Source: a virus (lineage: Duplodnaviria > Heunggongvirae > Uroviricota > Caudoviricetes). From it: a DNA stretch of 6,280 nucleotides. The stretch lies in IMG/VR virus record IMGVR_UViG_2690315994_000034; one strand, 5' to 3'. This document shows, piece by piece, positions 1-6,280 of the stretch. The translations under genes and the position numbers were made by a program. Numbering within the stretch: position 1 is the first letter of the stretch; each line of letters opens with the position of its first letter. The notes beneath the pieces were generated by a model. That model was given only the letters and a program-made list of their open reading frames with translations. It had not been told where the DNA came from and ran no database searches.

Positions 1-852
1 TTAACCGGCTTCGTTTTGACAGGTTGCCGGTCTTTCTTTTTTCACTTTCGCCAGTTCTTCCGCAGAGTAATGCGACGCGACATCCAGCCGTCGAAGCCCC
101 ATTTTGATGTACTCGCTGTTGATCTCAATACCAATGAATTTTCGTCCGCTGGCGATGGCTACGGCACCGGTAGTAAAGCTACCAGCAAACGGGTCGAGAA
201 CGATATCGCCTGGGTTGGAAGAGGCGAGAATAATGCGTTTCAGTAAGGCTTCCGGTTTTTGCGTCGGGTGGTTTTCATATTCATCCATCAAATAACGCAC
301 GCGCGGAAAATCCCAGACGTTACCCGGTACTTTTTGATGATTGTAAGGCTGTGGAGGATTTTTGCGATAATCGATCAACGCGCGCTGCGATCCGGTTTTG
401 GCTTCTACCAGAATAGCATCACCGTTGAATGTGTAGTTCTTTGCGTCTTTCACCATCATCAGGATGGGTTCGTACATGGAGCCGTAGTGTTTTTTCGCCT
501 GCACTCCAGAACTGTCATATGACCAGACGATGCGACTTTTGATGGTAAAAAGCTTGCGGCACTGGAGATCGATAAAGGGCATGTTTTCCGTACTGTTCAT
601 GATGTACATGCTGCCCTGCTTTTTCAGAACGCGGTGGCACTCTGCAATCACTTCTAACAGCCAGTCGATAAACAGATCTTCTTTCCAGGCTTCGATCAGA
701 CCATCAAAATTTTTACCGATGTTATACGGTGGGTCGGCAAAGATCAGATCGACGCTTTCAGTAGGTAGCTTTTTAAGTTCGGCAAGGGCATCACCGTGAA
801 TAATGGTCTTAGCTTCATTACCAAACCGGGTCGGTTCACATCCTGTTCTCAT
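1..852 (-). CDS. yhdJ: DNA adenine methyltransferase YhdJ-like (complete, 283 aa)
   Basis: Reverse-strand ORF with stop TAA at 1-3. Likely true start is ATG at 850-852 (protein begins MRTGCEPTRFGNEAKTIIHGDALAELKK), preceded by AAGGGAG 5 nt upstream; the ORF-track start at 916-918 is a TTG giving a 22-aa extension. Contains the DPPY motif (IFADPPYNIG) and an AdoMet-binding-like LDPFAGSFTTG segment typical of N6-adenine/N4-cytosine methyltransferases. N-terminus matches my recollection of E. coli YhdJ. Confidence 0.9.
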   Translation of the reverse strand: MRTGCEPTRFGNEAKTIIHGDALAELKKLPTESVDLIFADPPYNIGKNFDGLIEAWKEDLFIDWLLEVIAECHRVLKKQGSMYIMNSTENMPFIDLQCRKLFTIKSRIVWSYDSSGVQAKKHYGSMYEPILMMVKDAKNYTFNGDAILVEAKTGSQRALIDYRKNPPQPYNHQKVPGNVWDFPRVRYLMDEYENHPTQKPEALLKRIILASSNPGDIVLDPFAGSFTTGAVAIASGRKFIGIEINSEYIKMGLRRLDVASHYSAEELAKVKKERPATCQNEAG

Positions 853-876
853 GGTCACTCCCTTTGTGACACCTAT

Positions 877-914
877 AAAAAAGGCGCTTCCCCATGCCGA
901 GTAGCGCCTTTTAA
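877..914 (-). terminator. Rho-independent terminator, probably the fis terminator
   Basis: Stem GGCGCT (883-888) / AGCGCC (903-908), extendable by A:T pairs to 10 bp, 14-nt loop. On the minus strand the stem is followed by TTTTTT (complement of 877-882); on the plus strand by TTTT. Lies between the fis 3' remnant and the yhdJ start. Confidence 0.55.
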
Positions 915-936
915 TCAAGCAATTAGCTAACCTGAA

Positions 937-957
937 TTAGTTCATGCCGTACTGTCA
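937..957 (-). other. fis: Remnant of fis 3' end; probable element/chromosome junction (att core copy)
   Basis: Minus strand reads TGA CAG TAC GGC ATG AAC TAA (stop-Q-Y-G-M-N-stop). Fis ends ..KKYGMN as I recall it. An in-frame stop sits immediately upstream, so only the last codons are present and upstream sequence is unrelated and AT-rich. Confidence 0.5.
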
Positions 958-1036
958 GATTAGCTGTTTTCATGCTTTTAGGTGATTTTAGTATTTATAT
1001 AATAATCAATGGCTTATTTAAATTTATGCCTGTATA

Positions 1037-1065
1037 TTGTTCCAGTGTTTTTCTTTGTTTATGCT
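1037..1065 (+). promoter_or_regulatory. Candidate sigma70 promoter for the integrase gene
   Basis: TTGTTC (1037-1042), 17-bp spacer, TATGCT (1060-1065), about 55 nt upstream of the integrase ATG. Weak match; region is AT-rich so chance matches are likely. Confidence 0.2.
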
Positions 1066-1081
1066 ATTATGCAAGCAATTC

Positions 1082-1103
1082 TGTATAAACATTTGTATAA
1101 ACA
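1082..1103 (+). repeat. Tandem direct repeat TGTATAAACA x2 in the integrase leader
   Basis: Identical 10-mers at 1082-1091 and 1094-1103, 18-27 nt upstream of the integrase ATG; a related TGTATATTGT at 1031-1040. Confidence 0.6.
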
Positions 1104-1120
1104 CTTTGGGCTGGTGGTCT

Positions 1121-2347
1121 ATGGCTGGCGAACTTAACAAACTGAGCGACAGGAAGTTAAAGGGATTACATGGCATCCCGGCCAGTAAGATTGAGTTCTA
1201 TGCTGATGGTGCCGGGCTGAGTGCCAAGGTAACGAAAGCTGGTGGTATTAGCTGGGTGTTTACTTACCGACTCGACGGGCAGAAGTTGCATCGTCTTACT
1301 CTGGGACGATACCCGGATATGAGCCTCAAAGAGGCCCGTTCCTCGCGTGATAAATGCCGCCAGTGGCTGGCCTCAGGTAAAGACCCAAAGCACCAGTTGG
1401 CGCTAACTACTCAGGAAACGCTTAAACCGGTCACGGTGCAGGAAGCTATCGAATACTGGATACGTGAATATGCAGAAGAGAATCGCGCGAATGTTGAGCG
1501 GCATAAAGCGGAGCTACGCAAACATATTTACCCTTACATTGGAAAAATGGCGCTCGCTGACTGCGAAACCCGATACTGGCTTGACTGCTTTGACAGGATG
1601 AAAAAGAAAACGCCAGTCGCCGCAGGTTATGTGTTCCAGATGTGCAAACAAGCCCTGAAATTCTGCCGGGTTCGTCGCTATGCTGTGAGTACCGCGCTTG
1701 AAGATTTAACAATTCCAGATGTCGGTAAAAAACAGGCAAAAAAAGATCGGGTATTAAACGATAAAGAGGCTGGCGATTTATGGACTGCCATTACCTCTAG
1801 CACTTGCTTCATGCCTTACTACACCAGGCTACTGACAATCTTAATGGTGTTTGGGTGCCGAACGCAGGAGGCCAGACTATCAGAGTGGAGTGAATGGGAT
1901 ATGGATGCCTGGGTCTGGACAGTTCCCAAAGAGCACAGCAAGGGCGGCGAGAAGATTGTAAGACCTGTGCCGGATGCCATGCGCAAATTCATTGAAATAC
2001 TGCATGATGAAACGAAACTATCCGGTCTTTTGCTTGGGTCGGTTAAAGGCAGTGAAGCGGTAAGCCAGTGGGGCCGTAGCGTTTATAAAAAGCTGGGGCA
2101 TTCTGAACCATGGACACTGCACGATCTAAGACGAACTTTAGCAACGCATATGAATAATATGGGTATAGCACCACACGTTGTCGAACAGTTGTTGGGGCAC
2201 TCAATGCCGGGAGTTATGGCGATTTATAACCGTAGTCTGTACTTGCCTGAGAAGCTGGACGCGCTGAATAAGTGGTATGAACGATTAGAACTTCTTGCGG
2301 GTAATCATCAAAATGTGGTTCTGTTACCTGTAATGAATAGAGATTAA
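1121..2347 (+). CDS. int: Tyrosine recombinase, P4-type phage integrase (408 aa)
   Basis: Likely start ATG 1121 (MAGELNKLSDRKLK..); the ORF-track start 1037 is TTG. N-terminal region (LSDRKLKGL..YADGAGLSAKVTKAGGISWVFTYRLDGQKLHRLTLGRYPDMSLKEAR) resembles the arm-binding domain of P4-like integrases. C-terminal catalytic signature present: R in FGCRTQEARLSEW, HDLRRT, LLGHS, tyrosine in AIYNRS. Stop TAA 2345-2347. Confidence 0.9.
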   Translation: MAGELNKLSDRKLKGLHGIPASKIEFYADGAGLSAKVTKAGGISWVFTYRLDGQKLHRLTLGRYPDMSLKEARSSRDKCRQWLASGKDPKHQLALTTQETLKPVTVQEAIEYWIREYAEENRANVERHKAELRKHIYPYIGKMALADCETRYWLDCFDRMKKKTPVAAGYVFQMCKQALKFCRVRRYAVSTALEDLTIPDVGKKQAKKDRVLNDKEAGDLWTAITSSTCFMPYYTRLLTILMVFGCRTQEARLSEWSEWDMDAWVWTVPKEHSKGGEKIVRPVPDAMRKFIEILHDETKLSGLLLGSVKGSEAVSQWGRSVYKKLGHSEPWTLHDLRRTLATHMNNMGIAPHVVEQLLGHSMPGVMAIYNRSLYLPEKLDALNKWYERLELLAGNHQNVVLLPVMNRD

Positions 2348-2380
2348 ACTGATATTGCGGGCCTAGGTCGGCCAACCGAA

Positions 2381-2402
2381 AAGCGGGAAACCCTACCCGC
2401 TT
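2381..2402 (+). terminator. Hairpin between integrase and next gene; weak terminator candidate
   Basis: AAGCGGG (2381-2387), 8-nt loop, CCCGCTT (2396-2402); flanked by a partial outer palindrome GCCAA..TTGGC. No T tract follows, so terminator function is doubtful. Confidence 0.25.
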
Positions 2403-2440
2403 GGCTCGCAAATTAATTTAGGGGCGTTGAGGGCAGCGCA

Positions 2441-3370
2441 ATGGCTAACGACATTAAAATACCTTTTCAATACTGCAATATTGAACGTGCGTCGAGATTG
2501 CTGGGTTGTGAGATTAGCGACCTGATTAATTTAGGTGTTACTAAAAAAATATCTTTATGTCTAAATTTGTTTGATGCTCGCGCTGTTTTATATATGAGAA
2601 CTGACAGCAAATCTGCATGCGACTGGTTCGATACCAGAAAGGCAAACTCCACCACATCCATGATGGGAAACAATATTACTGAATTTTCCAGGCTTCATCT
2701 CTACAGATGCGATTACAATGAGGAAACGGAAGAAACGATTCACGTGCCTTTATTTGGTCAAGATACAGAAAATGGGTGTTTCAGTTCTATTGGTAAGGCT
2801 TATGGGTTGTGGCGTCTTTGGAGCGGATTAGAAGAGCTACAAAATTTTGGAGAGTATGCCCTAAGTGGTTTTGAATTAACCCCGTGCCATCCAGAAACTG
2901 ATAATCCCGCCGTACAGCTTTTAATGGTTGGCGAAGATAGCGATTATGATGAAGAAGACGATCAAGTATTCAAAAATAAAATCTCTATAAACGATTTGTG
3001 GATTACTGCTCAGGATATAAGGCGGCTCCTTGACTGTGGTGGCGATTATTTCACGCTGACAGATGATATTGAATTTGTAGAACCTCATAAGATGAATGGC
3101 AATGAAATTGTTCATCATTCTGCTGAAAGACATGCAAGAAATCGAGAGCAAATTTTAATGGTAGCCATGCGCTTCAAAGAAGAGCAGCAAAATGCTTTTA
3201 ATGAGAGTTGCAGAAAAACAGATGGAACTATTAACTATTCTGCCTGGGCCCGTGAGTTGATCGCCAGACCTGACTGGTTCATCAATGGTGAATTGCCAAT
3301 AAAAACAGAAACGAAAATAGCAGCAATATTAAACAATGCGCATAAGAGGCCGAGCGAAAGAACACAGTAA
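2441..3370 (+). CDS. Hypothetical protein, 309 aa, function unknown
   Basis: ATG at 2441 with GAGGG 7 nt upstream; stop TAA 3368-3370. Noticeably AT-richer than flanking genes (first 60 nt are about 37% GC). Contains acidic patch GEDSDYDEEDDQ and two helix-turn-helix-like stretches (IERASRLLGCEISDLINLG and ISINDLWITAQDIRRLLDCGG). No catalytic motif recognised. Confidence 0.65.
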   Translation: MANDIKIPFQYCNIERASRLLGCEISDLINLGVTKKISLCLNLFDARAVLYMRTDSKSACDWFDTRKANSTTSMMGNNITEFSRLHLYRCDYNEETEETIHVPLFGQDTENGCFSSIGKAYGLWRLWSGLEELQNFGEYALSGFELTPCHPETDNPAVQLLMVGEDSDYDEEDDQVFKNKISINDLWITAQDIRRLLDCGGDYFTLTDDIEFVEPHKMNGNEIVHHSAERHARNREQILMVAMRFKEEQQNAFNESCRKTDGTINYSAWARELIARPDWFINGELPIKTETKIAAILNNAHKRPSERTQ

Positions 3371-3391
3371 GCCTTACTCATATACTCCTAT

Positions 3392-3428
3392 AGCATACTG
3401 ATATATTTATAAGCATTATCAGTATGCT
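3392..3428. repeat. 12-bp perfect inverted repeat AGCATACTGATA / TATCAGTATGCT with 13-bp spacer
   Basis: Arms at 3392-3403 and 3417-3428, between the 309-aa gene stop and the alpA start; followed by ATGCTT x2. Could be an operator, recombination-related site or terminator. Confidence 0.5.
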
Positions 3429-3508
3429 TCTATGCTTACAACTGTATTTCTATCCAGTGTTAACGGTTGCAAACTAGCCTCCACAAACTTAGAAACAGTG
3501 GAGGCAAC

Positions 3509-3793
3509 ATGCAAAACCCCATTTTTACCCCGCCTAATCCTGAACAGCGCCGCACCCTTTTAGAAGAGTACGGCTTTAAGTTCGATCGTCGAATCCGTGA
3601 AGAAGAATGTAGCGAGATCACCAGCCTTTCCCGTTCCAGCCGTTGGAAAATGGAGCAGCAAGGACGATTTCCGCCACGCTGCCACTTCGGCCGCAATAGC
3701 TGTGCCTGGCTTCTTTCTGATGTGCTCTGGTGGGTTCGTAATCCGCCTGTAGTAGAGAACGTCAATAACCCATACAGCCGCAAATCTGCTTAA
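3509..3793 (+). CDS. alpA: AlpA-family phage transcriptional regulator / excisionase-like HTH protein (94 aa)
   Basis: Likely start ATG 3509 with GTGGAGG 4 nt upstream; ORF-track start 3467 is TTG. Segment ITSLSRSSRWKMEQQGRFPPRCHFGRNSCAWLLSDVLWWVRN fits the AlpA pattern (LSRSTIYR..G.FP.P...G.R...W...EV..W). Confidence 0.8.
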   Translation: MQNPIFTPPNPEQRRTLLEEYGFKFDRRIREEECSEITSLSRSSRWKMEQQGRFPPRCHFGRNSCAWLLSDVLWWVRNPPVVENVNNPYSRKSA

Positions 3794-3813
3794 TTAACTA
3801 CAGGTAATCAGAG

Positions 3814-4524
3814 ATGAAAAAGATTAATGCCCTCAACGGGCAGGGATTCGCTCACCCTGAAGCCAGCCAGAGCGATATTTTAATTAATCACAAATCGGAG
3901 CCGCGTATCGATTCCCGCGTTATTTCAGAGCGAGCCGGAATACAACATGAAAGCCTAAGCGCGACGATTAAATCGCACCAGAGCAGATTGCGCGAGCTGG
4001 GATCACTGCCTCGTCAGTCACTCAAGGAATTAACCGATTTGAAATCGGGAAAATCCGGCCGAAAGCGTGGGCGTCCTGAGATTAGTTATCTGCTGAATGA
4101 GCCGCAGCTCGACTATCTGCTGCGTATCACCCGAGGGCGTGATCCTGAGCGTATTAACCAGTTCAAACTGGATGTTACGAAGGCATTCACTAAGCGCCGC
4201 GCCGCAGAACCTATCCGCCGTGAGTACCTGCCTGGCTATCACGAAAGCCGCGACAGATTAAAAGCTCTGGGCGCACAACGGCACCATTACATCAATCTGG
4301 CCCGCGCTGAAAACCGCGTGGCTGGTTTGTCTGATGGTGAACGCGGTACCGCAGACGAACAGCAATTGGGGCTGTTGGTAGTGATGCAGAAAATCGAACA
4401 GGCGGCCTTTAATGAGGCGGTGCGTAATGACATGAGTCCAGGCGATGCGGTGCGTGAGGTTGCCCGCCGTATGGATGCGTTCGCCAGCCTGATCACTTCA
4501 TCGTCAGTGTTGGAGATTCGCTGA
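3814..4524 (+). CDS. Rha-family phage regulatory protein-like (236 aa)
   Basis: ATG 3814, stop TGA 4522-4524. Segments DSRVISERAGIQHESLSATIKS and ISYLLNEPQLDYLLRITRGRDPERINQFKLDVTKAF resemble the Rha N-terminal domain as I remember it (..TSSR.IAE.FGKRH..VLR.I.. and ..GY.LT..GF..L.M.FTG..A..FK..YI.AF..). Confidence 0.65.
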   Translation: MKKINALNGQGFAHPEASQSDILINHKSEPRIDSRVISERAGIQHESLSATIKSHQSRLRELGSLPRQSLKELTDLKSGKSGRKRGRPEISYLLNEPQLDYLLRITRGRDPERINQFKLDVTKAFTKRRAAEPIRREYLPGYHESRDRLKALGAQRHHYINLARAENRVAGLSDGERGTADEQQLGLLVVMQKIEQAAFNEAVRNDMSPGDAVREVARRMDAFASLITSSSVLEIR

Positions 4525-4546
4525 TGCGTCTTATGCCTAAAATTTT

Positions 4547-4568
4547 GCGCTCCCCCGTTTGGGGGCGC
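4547..4568 (+). terminator. GC-rich hairpin just downstream of the Rha-like gene; weak terminator candidate
   Basis: GCGCTCCCCC / GTTT loop / GGGGGCGC, 23 nt after the stop. No clear T tract on the plus strand (TCAAATCC follows). Confidence 0.25.
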
Positions 4569-4663
4569 TCAAATCCTTGTGAGTTAGCCGCGTGCTATTT
4601 GCATAACTCAATCAGGGTTGCGCAGAATTTGAGCCGACGAAATTCGCACGTACAAATTAACCG

Positions 4664-4680
4664 CGTACGTTTAACGTACG
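4664..4680. promoter_or_regulatory. 17-bp palindrome CGTACGTTTAACGTACG; candidate operator
   Basis: Perfect 8-bp arms around a central T; contains two CGTACG hexamers; a further ACGTAC at 4648-4653. Same core as the palindromes at 5247-5286. Confidence 0.4.
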
Positions 4681-4832
4681 GACATCTCAACCCATTGAAT
4701 CATTTTGATTATCGCGAAACGCGAGAATTGGCGAGCAACGAACACGAACAGTATTCGGGTTCTCCTGAACATCAACACTGCTTAGGTTCAGAGGTTCCGA
4801 CGAAAAACGTAGAGAGCTGCGAAGATAACCAA

Positions 4833-4847
4833 CCCTCTTTAAGAGGG
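4833..4847 (-). terminator. Candidate terminator of the leftward RHH/small-peptide operon
   Basis: Palindrome CCCTCTTTAAGAGGG. On the minus strand the hairpin is followed by TTGGTTATCTT, and it lies 33-47 nt downstream of the small-peptide stop. Confidence 0.3.
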
Positions 4848-4879
4848 CCAGTTAAAGGCATTACAGGGAGTAACCCTGA

Positions 4880-5032
4880 TCAGCCATTTTTACAGCCTTT
4901 CAGTACATCGCCAGGGTTAACGGAACAGTCAGGCTTCCAAAGCGAATCGAAAAAACCGAATTGGTACAAAATCCATAAAATAATTAGTGCAATGAGAATG
5001 CGACCTGGGAGGGTATGTAACAGCCAGTTCAT
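4880..5032 (-). CDS. Small single-pass membrane peptide, 50 aa (not in the ORF track)
   Basis: Hand-translated minus strand: ATG at 5030-5032 preceded by GAAGGAG (5041-5047) with 8-nt spacing; stop TGA at 4880-4882. Product MNWLLHTLPGRILIALIILWILYQFGFFDSLWKPDCSVNPGDVLKGCKNG has an 18-residue hydrophobic stretch and a short polar tail with two Cys. Starts 21 nt after the RHH gene stop. Confidence 0.5.
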   Translation of the reverse strand: MNWLLHTLPGRILIALIILWILYQFGFFDSLWKPDCSVNPGDVLKGCKNG

Positions 5033-5053
5033 TATTTTATCTCCTTCTGAAAT

Positions 5054-5245
5054 TCAACCTTTTGGCTCTATGCCGCGCCGCTTTAGTTCTGCCCTAGCTA
5101 ATTCTTTAAACCAGTTACCAAGGGTTAGACCGTCAGAAGTTGCCGCCTCATTTACTTGTTGGCGTAGCTCTTTACTGATTCTGATTTGGAAGGTTGGAGA
5201 CCATCCCTCACCGCGTGGCGATTTATCGCGCTTTAATGTTGACAT
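5054..5245 (-). CDS. Ribbon-helix-helix (Arc/MetJ/CopG-like) DNA-binding protein, 63 aa
   Basis: ATG at 5243-5245, only possible start (in-frame TAG upstream); AGGAG 12 nt upstream. PTFQIRISKELRQQVNEAATSDGLTLGNWFKELARAELKRRG fits strand / helix / G-x-T turn / helix of RHH repressors, compared by eye with P22 Mnt and Arc. Confidence 0.5.
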   Translation of the reverse strand: MSTLKRDKSPRGEGWSPTFQIRISKELRQQVNEAATSDGLTLGNWFKELARAELKRRGIEPKG

Positions 5246-5267
5246 GTACGTACGTAACTCCTATTAT
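5239..5267 (+). promoter_or_regulatory. Near-consensus sigma70 promoter, rightward
   Basis: TTGACA (5239-5244), 17-bp spacer, TATTAT (5262-5267); predicted start near 5274. The -35 box overlaps the RHH start codon on the opposite strand. Confidence 0.5.
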
Positions 5268-5286
5268 CATTGCTGTTACGTACGTA
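5247..5286. promoter_or_regulatory. Twin palindromic operator candidates TACGTACGTA x2
   Basis: Identical 10-bp perfect palindromes at 5247-5256 (inside the promoter spacer) and 5277-5286 (at the predicted transcription start), spaced exactly 30 bp. Confidence 0.5.
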
Positions 5287-5303
5287 CAATATCAGTAGGT
5301 ACA

Positions 5304-5346
5304 GTAAAAAGCAAAGCCCCGCAAGTGTCGTTACCACTCGCAGGGC
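5304..5346 (-). terminator. Strong hairpin, terminator-like on the minus strand
   Basis: GCCCCGCAAGTG (5316-5327), loop TCGTTAC, CACTCGCAGGGC (5335-5346): 12-bp stem with two mismatches. On the minus strand it is followed by TTTGCTTTTTAC; on the plus strand by TTCTAACC (poor). Lies in the leader between the promoter and gene 5385-5588. Confidence 0.4.
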
Positions 5347-5384
5347 TTCTAACCACCAACGATAGAAAGCGTATCGAGGTAGCT

Positions 5385-5588
5385 ATGAGAAATCATACCA
5401 CACACCCGCAAGGGCGGGACTCGCACAACCTGAATAAATACATCTGGCGTTTTATCGCCCTGAGCACGGCACAACCGCGCGTGATTACCATTGAGGCCAC
5501 CAGCGAACAGGAAGCACGCCAGCAATCTCCGGCTGGCTGCGTGATGGTATTCGCTGCCCGTATTCGTCAGGGGTCACATCATGCGTAA
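5385..5588 (+). CDS. Small protein, 67 aa, ends in ARIRQG motif; possibly Ash-like/Icd-like
   Basis: ATG 5385 with GAGG 5 nt upstream; stop TAA 5586-5588 overlaps the next ATG (ATGCGTAA). Shares YxWRF..EATSEQEARQQ..FAARIRQG with the C-terminus of the next ORF. The family name is a vague recollection, not a verified match. Confidence 0.55.
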   Translation: MRNHTTHPQGRDSHNLNKYIWRFIALSTAQPRVITIEATSEQEARQQSPAGCVMVFAARIRQGSHHA

Positions 5589-6048
5589 AAACCGCTTGCA
5601 AAAAATTATCACGGGGCTGTATGCTTCCCCCGTCGCCCACATGGCGACCGGGTTTGACAGCCTGAATACATCTGGCGGACAGCCGCCCACATCCGATAAG
5701 CGGTTTTTTTGTGTCCGTAAACCTACCCATACCCGCATTATGGCGGGGCGTAACGGGGGAGCCTTTGTGCTCGCTGGTTTCCAGATGACCAGTCTGTCAA
5801 CCCTGTTACGTCTCGCCACCATGTTTGACAGCGTAGTAGCGAGACTCCTTAAAATTCATCTGGGAGCCTTTCACATGGCTGTATCCGCACGCCCTTATTT
5901 TGTCTGGCGCTTTATGCAGTGCCAGGAAAAACAAACCTCACTCTTTACCGTCACGGCAGCAACAGAACGCGAAGCCCGCGCCCAGCTGCCGCACGCACAT
6001 CTGATTTTTGTCGCCCGTATTCGTCAGGGGGAAACCTATGCACAATAA
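5581..6048 (+). CDS. Protein of 155 aa whose C-terminal 50 aa are paralogous to the preceding gene
   Basis: ATG 5581 overlaps the upstream stop and sits 7 nt after GGGG, the same arrangement as the next junction at 6038. C-terminus YFVWRF..TAATEREARAQ..FVARIRQG. N-terminal 98 aa are compositionally odd (R/G/S/T-rich), so the real gene may start at ATG 5875 (57 aa). Confidence 0.45.
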   Translation: MRKNRLQKIITGLYASPVAHMATGFDSLNTSGGQPPTSDKRFFCVRKPTHTRIMAGRNGGAFVLAGFQMTSLSTLLRLATMFDSVVARLLKIHLGAFHMAVSARPYFVWRFMQCQEKQTSLFTVTAATEREARAQLPHAHLIFVARIRQGETYAQ

Positions 6049-6280
6049 AACCACGCCGGACGCAGCCGCCGCCGCGCTCACTACGCTGATGCATGCGCTT
6101 ATTGATATTGAATGCACAGCAGGGCTTGCACAAAAGGAAGAACGGGAAGAATACACATTGTTCGCCCTGGAATGCATCCGATACACCGCCACGCGGTCGC
6201 TGAATGACGCTAAAAATATTCTTGTTGCTGATTGTGAAAATGGGGAGGGTGCCCCTATTAAGTTGTCAAGCATGTTATGA
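6038..6280 (+). CDS. Hypothetical protein, 5' part only (runs off window end)
   Basis: ATG 6038 overlapping the upstream stop (ATGCACAATAA), AGGGGGAAA 4 nt upstream; ORF-track start 6008 is TTG. 81 codons with no stop before the window ends. Confidence 0.5.
   Translation: MHNKTTPDAAAAALTTLMHALIDIECTAGLAQKEEREEYTLFALECIRYTATRSLNDAKNILVADCENGEGAPIKLSSML

Follow-up and report, generated by a model that had tools for sequence, protein, structure and literature searches.

Positions 853-1120 of the window, by which we mean the whole 6,280-nucleotide stretch of DNA analysed here, are in our reading the attL of a fis-group PICI of the capsid-forming type (cf-PICI), and we put the probability of this reading at about 0.93. 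The first-pass annotation of this DNA had proposed that an element was integrated site-specifically at the 3' end of fis, with the displaced end of the gene left beside yhdJ, and had suggested that the junction be aligned with an uninterrupted fis-yhdJ region. When this was done by blastn with the E. coli K-12 MG1655 locus (L002), window 1-951 was collinear with L002 2506-1554 at 98.6% identity and the homology broke off sharply, exactly at 951/952, the endpoint being the T of a TAC (Tyr) codon. In a four-way alignment the window follows K-12 from yhdJ via the terminator to the TAC of TACGGCATGAACTAA and is unrelated beyond it. The gene order that had been given for K-12, with fis directly upstream of yhdJ, agrees with the K-12 gene coordinates: fis (3411271-3411567) and yhdJ (3411653-3412537) are adjacent, and in L002 they lie at 1272-1568 and 1654-2538 on the same strand with 85 nt between them. 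The features at and around the junction are the following.

1-852, minus strand: yhdJ, DNA adenine methyltransferase, chromosomal flank, 98.6% identical to K-12 (PF01555 N6_N4_Mtase, E = 3e-64)
850-852, minus strand: start codon of yhdJ
877-912, minus strand: original fis intrinsic terminator, a GGCGCT...AGCGCC hairpin followed by U6
937-951, minus strand: displaced fis 3' end, its last 15 nt, TAC GGC ATG AAC TAA (Y-G-M-N-stop), the attL core
952-1120, plus strand: element-side (P') arm of the attachment site, AT-rich, with stops in the fis frame
1082-1103, plus strand: doubled motif TGTATAAACA-tt-TGTATAAACA, period 12, by its position a candidate integrase arm-type site (P' arm)

The last fis codons and the terminator that had been noticed on the minus strand are thus where they were said to be, at 937-951 and 877-912. 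The terminator has the K-12 sequence except for one A in the A-run of the alignment. A simple terminator scan overlooked it because of an interior mismatch and a long loop, and it was recovered by folding: the 86-nt 3' region at 866-951, which includes the terminator, folds with -26 kcal/mol (z = -3.3 versus shuffles). The integration has parted this terminator from fis, and it now lies on the yhdJ side of the element. On the minus strand Y-G-M-N-stop is preceded by Q and then, in translation, by the in-frame stop that had been described, a TGA at 955-957, and by more stops. The unrelated DNA beyond the fis tail is AT-rich, as had also been stated, with 25-27% G+C at 950-1099 compared with 45-56% in the flanks. 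ARAGORN found no tRNA or tmRNA in the window, in agreement with the earlier statement that there is no tRNA at the junction.

The 17-mer AGTACGGCATGAACTAA which the first-pass annotation took to be the core stands in part: the 13-nt AGTTCATGCCGTA is shared, but the AG before TAC is element DNA and not fis. On the plus strand AGTTCATGCCGTA occupies 939-951 and is the sequence common to both element ends in relatives, as seen from the alignment with the K-12 attB and with the attL and attR of NZ_OZ040669.1. Judging from these sequence comparisons, strand exchange must be confined to 939-951, that is, to AGTTCATGCCGTA.

Within the P' arm, loci L019-L029 and L035 all conserve the block CTGTATATTGTTCCAGTG (1030-1047), which lies about 90 nt to the right of the core. 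It is kept in the TGTATAAACA and GTGGGGTAC classes of the doubled motif and not in the GTGTAGTC or GTGTATCAC classes, and it may serve to bind a further protein or belong to the int promoter. A sigma-70 scan of 800-1200 gave no promoter-like site for int. An sRNA in the fis 3' region was considered and rejected: the Rfam STnc40 matches in the window, in K-12 and in attR were sub-threshold (21-26 bits versus 45) and were dismissed because a generic terminator hairpin drives the alignment. A core-type inverted repeat, CAGT...ACTG, around the core in this attP was also rejected, its right half being unconserved across the motif classes. In the chromosomal flank, yhdJ has a 1-nt deletion in an A7/T7 homopolymer (window 36-42) relative to K-12 and L004, which alters the last ~22 residues (283 aa versus 294) and may reflect a true frameshift or an error in sequencing. 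No yhdJ gene was called in CP182026.1.

Recurrence of the junction and the rebuilding of fis

An uninterrupted fis-yhdJ junction is present in 5309 of 5426 complete E. coli genomes, and in the other 117 (2.2%) it is interrupted. The integrase gene was found at 86% DNA identity or more in 19 E. coli genomes and yhdJ adjoined it every time; E. coli islands with the same attL have an integrase gene 87-96% identical in DNA to that of the window. In 57 loci the same 12-mer precedes int at a distance of 176-201 nt. When contigs were taken at one genome per species, integrases that are 66-97% identical were found 176-201 nt from GTTCATGCCGTA in 12 named Enterobacterales genera (Enterobacter, Klebsiella, Pluralibacter, Pectobacterium, Brenneria, Rosenbergiella, Rahnella, Proteus, Serratia, Erwinia, Yersinia, and Scandinavium) and in one unclassified Enterobacteriaceae MAG, and IMG/VR gave 72 more loci. 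Across the Enterobacterales genomes and IMG/VR, integrases with 65-99% amino acid identity adjoin the same fis core.

These data bear on the possibility that the fis fragment by yhdJ came from a non-specific rearrangement, either IS-mediated or by illegitimate recombination, or that it is a chance match of 15 nt. Nothing was found in favor of this, and we regard it as practically negligible. In 46 distinct attL contexts from many genera the sequence breaks at precisely the same nucleotide, and in each of them a homologous integrase follows 176-201 nt downstream; the match extends over about 100 nt of contiguous chromosomal sequence with a sharp breakpoint; the reciprocal junction with fis is present in relatives; and IS sequence is absent at the junction. 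The recurrence of this junction is enough to refute the alternative, and the site-specific integration at the fis 3' end that was first proposed is supported. All that remains downstream of fis in E. coli strain 58-3 (L037, NZ_CP050036.1, 20169-23100; H127) is an element-type fis end, a DUF6602 gene and IS1, and yhdJ through acrEF is deleted; this is a decayed island with an IS1-associated deletion and is uninformative about intact elements.

It had also been expected that an intact fis and a second core would be found at the far end of the element. The window itself stops at 6280, but relatives with the same attL have both. In the E. coli genome NZ_OZ040669.1, whose int region is 95.5% identical in DNA to that of the window, the 15.8-kb island terminates in ...TATCAGTTCATGCCGTA, which is followed by full-length fis, dusB, and prmA, and the two ends share the exact AGTTCATGCCGTA and an imperfect 78-nt repeat with a second terminator. 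NZ_CP147130.1 also has the same attL and int, and in these two genomes a copy of the core and an intact fis follow 15.8-15.9 kb on. E. coli KFu015, with an int region 87% identical in DNA, has the same construction. Because the window's own right end lies beyond 6280 and the near-identical drafts L004-L007 end inside the island, the claim about attR rests on these relatives. The contigs L004-L007 probably end there because further copies of the late module are present elsewhere in E. coli genomes, as in L009 and L013.

The pattern of a doubled motif, 59 nt and the core was found in 33 IMG/VR contigs, with an identical 102-nt span in all of them. In 28 of these right-end contigs the core is followed by a complete fis of 98 codons ending ...KKYGMN; of the other five, two break off inside fis, two represent attP junctions, and in one (L122) unrelated sequence follows. 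All attR and attP sequences examined have a replacement fis terminator, which is located between the core and the doubled motif, and the stop codon supplied to fis by the element is often TGA and not TAA. Since in relatives element DNA gives fis its end and a terminator, fis is reconstituted and re-terminated. What the element re-supplies is Y-G-M-N, a stop and a replacement intrinsic terminator, and therefore Fis is unchanged and still terminated and the host retains a normal copy of this important global regulator. This is a textbook-clean case in which the target of an integrase is the 3' end of a protein-coding gene, and a new end and terminator are brought along to replace the old ones.

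The replacement fis end in E. coli elements is of two types, a Klebsiella/Enterobacter type (TGATAC..., with a diverged spacer) and an E. coli type (L001 36721-36732 versus L110 36822-36833). The E. coli type keeps TAA and is one base off the K-12 region over 78 nt. The existence of the two types suggests either recent host switches or homogenization of the arm with host sequence.

Excised forms are also found among the relatives. An attP, with one core and both arms, is present in two metagenome-derived IMG/VR contigs, and one of these is a circular permutation, TerS-TerL-...-attP-int-...-portal, without chromosomal flank. LR881103.1 (L144, 'Escherichia phage vB_KppS-Ant', 16,548 bp, 'induced prophage') has an attP at about 4850-5105 and an integrase 97% identical to that of the window. 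It is 99.92% identical to the fis island of K. pneumoniae ATCC 13883, which is the same type strain as DSM 30104. vB_KppS-Ant was recovered from phage preparations on K. pneumoniae DSM 30104 and described as a filamentous (ssDNA) prophage (PMC8006926). By its gene content LR881103.1 is a 16.5-kb fis-group cf-PICI and appears to be misclassified.

Gene content and state of the element

The genes and RNAs found in the window to the right of the junction are listed below.

1121-2347, plus strand: tyrosine integrase, 408 aa, intact (PF13356 Arm-DNA-bind_3, E = 6e-19; PF00589 Phage_integrase, E = 2e-17)
2356-2424, plus strand: int-alpA RNA motif, Rfam RF02996 (61.2 bits versus a gathering score of 35.8, E = 3e-11)
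2441-3370, plus strand: 309-aa protein between int and alpA (phrog_7144, E = 7e-40)
3509-3793, plus strand: AlpA-family regulator/excisionase, the PICI signature gene (PF05930 Phage_AlpA, E = 4e-10, above cutoff)
3814-4524, plus strand: Rha/Bro-type DNA-binding regulator ('Bro zone') (PF09669 Phage_pRha, E = 1.6e-5, just below cutoff; phrog_2657, transcriptional regulator)
5054-5245, minus strand: small Arc/YlcI/YnfO-like (HicB-like) DNA-binding protein (weak matches, NF041551, E = 3e-4, and phrog_228 Arc-like, E = 2e-4)
5385-6048, plus strand: P4-type immunity region (RF01695 C4, 72.6 bits versus 45; RF03163, 46.8 versus 46.7)
5385-5588 and 5876-6048, plus strand: Icd-like genes of the immunity region (NF033153 phage_ICD_like, E = 1e-19 and 4e-14)
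5619-5668, plus strand: C4 target sites a1/b1
5736-5823, plus strand: C4 antisense RNA
6250-6280, plus strand: terminus of an IS110-family (ISEc20-like) insertion sequence

The label 'P4-type' that had been given to the integrase is fair since it has both the PF13356 and the PF00589 domains. The 309-aa protein at 2441-3370 had no Pfam or NCBIfam match. A stop-free ORF of 354 aa at 4524-5588 overlaps the Arc/YlcI-like gene on the opposite strand and ends in an Icd-like domain; it is called as one protein in L006 and L008, and its family match (phrog_6196) lies only in the last ~80 residues.

The contigs L003-L007 and L015, which were found via exact-protein look-ups, are 99.6-99.98% identical to window 1-6249 (99.65% for L003 and L015) and show what lies beyond the window. 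Further along the island, the complete chromosome CP182026.1 has DUF4222, an AAA_25 replication protein, SSB, PerC, the major capsid protein, S78 protease, portal, head-closure protein, connector, HNH, TerS, and TerL, and there are no tail or lysis genes in the stretch read as far as TerL. The islands in relatives are 15.8-16.5 kb in size. This gene set is that of the capsid-forming PICI type, and for the window copy the late module would be that of the 99.6%-identical contigs. In loci L009-L018 (for example CP010238.1 and CP049278.1) the immunity, replication and capsid modules recur, with 98-99.7% identity to window 5306-6249, behind unrelated integrases at other chromosomal sites, including next to pntB and to a JmjC/ROXA-type gene; between these loci and the window element the integration module alone is swapped.

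Capsid, protease, portal, connectors, HNH and terminase are also what would be expected if the island were an ordinary temperate prophage with fis as its attB and not a satellite, and the close relative LR881103.1 was deposited as a 'phage'. However, the elements are only about 16 kb, AlpA is present, and tail shaft, baseplate, tail fibre and lysis genes are not found in the complete ~16-kb relatives. There are likewise no tail domains in the precomputed Pfam lists of L003 and L015 or in the annotations of L001, L110, and L144. We consider it very improbable that the island is such a prophage. In one relative a protein was annotated by the depositor as 'tape measure'.

At the right end of the window an IS110-family insertion follows GGGGAGGG and breaks a small ORF starting at 6038 (phrog_5146). 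The window diverges from L003, L004, L015 and L009 exactly at 6249/6250, the IS is missing from the copies that are 99.6-99.98% identical, and the last 35 nt of the window match ISEc20/IS110 transposase loci at 100% in 1095 E. coli genomes. Since the insertion breaks the island at 6250, this copy may be crippled, and the junction may be a genuine integration scar of a decaying, immobile remnant and not of an active satellite. The homopolymer frameshift in the neighbouring yhdJ also points in this direction, the right end of the window's own copy lies beyond the stretch seen, and the deletion of yhdJ-acrEF associated with IS1 at fis in strain 58-3 is a precedent for such a remnant. On the other hand, the int ORF is of full length and agrees with that of L003 in all of the first 110 residues, neither the attL core nor the P' arm nor the doubled motif is damaged and their spacing is canonical, alpA and the C4 immunity region are intact, and the ORF broken by the IS is the small phrog_5146 gene and not a known core gene. 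Decay to an immobile remnant is unlikely, though it is the most probable of the alternatives considered.

Doubled motifs flanking the core

In the window the doubled motif begins 39 nt upstream of the ATG of int and 142 nt right of the start of the core. For comparison, 46 attL-type, 32 attR-type and 3 attP-type distinct contexts were used, and an exact repeat of at least 8 nt with a period of 12 was taken as the criterion. A doubled motif was found on the int side at +141 to +143 from the start of the core in all 49 distinct attL and attP contexts, and a second copy in the same orientation was found on the other side, at -91 to -93, in all 35 attR and attP contexts. The background of such repeats is 0.11 per kb in all fetched DNA, a figure that includes the fis att sites themselves. 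The motifs fall into at least five classes, TGTATAAACA, GTGGGGTAC, GTGGGGCAC, GTGTAGTC, and GTGTATCAC. Within a class, residues 1-75 of Int have 89% identity, as against 56% between classes, and the corresponding values for the rest of Int are 84% and 68%; thus the putative arm-binding domain diverges faster between classes.

Based on these findings, we cautiously favor the view that the doubled motifs are integrase arm-type sites which have diversified together with the N-terminal arm-binding domain of Int into at least five classes, while the specificity for the fis core has stayed constant. The assignment of the doubled motif to the arm domain of Int comes from position and covariation in the sequences, which is confounded by shared ancestry, and the binder could be AlpA or another protein. 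A literature search for TGTATAAACA together with 'integrase' found no paper.

A doubled motif was reported to be absent from the attPs of fis PICIs and unique to helper-embedded PICIs (HE-PICIs) (PMC10111431). The HE-PICI motif, TGTATTGC-n4-TGTATTGC, has the same period as those described here and in IMG/VR lies mostly 32-41 nt upstream of int, and the integrases behind it have 44-52% amino acid identity to the window Int and score 343-422 bits against it. Apparently, the uniqueness to HE-PICIs holds for the sequence of the motif and not for the architecture. If this is the case, the published statement would need correcting, and the fis PICIs would be a natural series of Int/attP pairs with different arm recognition and one shared attB. 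The arm architecture, with its fixed spacing, 12-nt period and clade-specific sequences, would then offer testable determinants of arm recognition, which may interest specialists.

From this anatomy and from what is known of the family, integration and excision would proceed as follows. The circular element would have at the centre of its attP a sequence identical to the last fis codons, AGTTCATGCCGTA, within which its own tyrosine integrase (1121-2347) would exchange strands with the chromosomal fis 3' end. The outcome is shown by comparison of the sequences: the 15-nt end that fis had at first and the terminator that went with it are left by yhdJ as attL, and at the other end, about 16 kb off in relatives, element DNA completes fis. 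The doubled 10-mers, 142 nt away on the int-proximal side and 91 nt away on the int-distal side, would most likely be bound by the N-terminal domain of Int in the building of the intasome. By analogy with other PICIs, AlpA (3509-3793) would supply excision and activation, and a helper phage would derepress the island, leading to excision, replication and packaging in self-encoded capsids with helper tails.

Relation to known systems

The integration inferred in the first-pass annotation is supported as correct but it is already published. Tommasini, Mageeney and Williams (2023, NAR Genom Bioinform, PMC10111431) found 2642, and then 3565, fis islands among 165,778 proteobacterial genomes, gave TACGGCATGAACTAA as the identity block of fis PICIs, which can extend into the terminator, named yhdJ as the gene across the island in Salmonella, and showed these islands to be PICIs and not prophages. 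They also cite the excision of Kpn47.16.fis within TACGGCATGAACTGATAC after mitomycin C, and their fis-PICI integrases score just above 400 bits to their reference (PMC10111431). The window has the TACGGCATGAACTAA block that is found, in this form or as a TGA variant, in fis PICIs, with attL at 937-951 and attR seen in relatives only. Next to this attL is a tyrosine integrase which by its domains, identity and bit scores is related to those of HE-PICIs, and AlpA (PF05930, 3509-3793) is present with no tail domains in the gene lists of relatives. The element shares with fis PICIs the fis 3' end as target, yhdJ across the island in enterobacteria, the int and alpA integration zone, the Bro/immunity-RNA zone, the replication zone, and a late zone that has captured head genes and lacks tail genes, and there is no essential difference between them. 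The fis site, the element family and its excision are therefore already known, and because they have been published the finding in the window opens no new question. For annotation it means that the fis-like tail by yhdJ should be called the attL of a fis PICI and not a pseudogene, and the island a capsid-forming satellite and not a defective prophage.

Capsid-forming PICIs were reportedly described by Alqurainy et al. in 2023. The cf-PICI family is named in PMC10803314 and in bioRxiv 10.1101/2025.02.11.637232. The contigs nearly identical to the window share with this family the major capsid protein, S78 protease, portal, head closure, connector, HNH, TerS, TerL, and AlpA and the lack of tail genes; the element's own capsid and packaging set without tail genes is seen in L003 and L015, beyond the window.

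The PICMIs of Vibrionaceae insert at the end of fis or directly downstream of it, have a 17-bp direct repeat and an int-alpA-prim core, and their integration at fis was called a PICMI hallmark (Barcia-Cruz et al. 2024, PMC10803314). The element in the window has the fis site and int-alpA in common with them. However, PICMIs are minimal elements of ~6-7 kb that have no capsid or packaging genes and use virulent helpers, whereas the window's group is enterobacterial, ~16 kb in size and capsid-forming.

HE-PICIs have an integrase from a related clade, a doubled motif whose period is 12 nt and which precedes int by ~32-41 nt, and the same order of zones (PMC10111431). They differ in that their target is a prophage late gene and not fis, and their motif is TGTATTGC and not TGTATAAACA or that of the other fis-PICI classes.

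P4-like satellites are a more distant comparison. The target of P4 is a tRNA-Leu gene. The Arm-DNA-bind_3 type of integrase, the C4/CI-type antisense RNA with its a1/b1 targets and the Icd-like genes are shared with P4, and these are the only features shared: psu, delta, sid and alpha-primase were not found in Pfam, NCBIfam and PHROG scans of the window proteins or in the gene lists of related contigs. P4 resizes the capsid of P2, whereas the group to which the window's element belongs encodes its own capsid.
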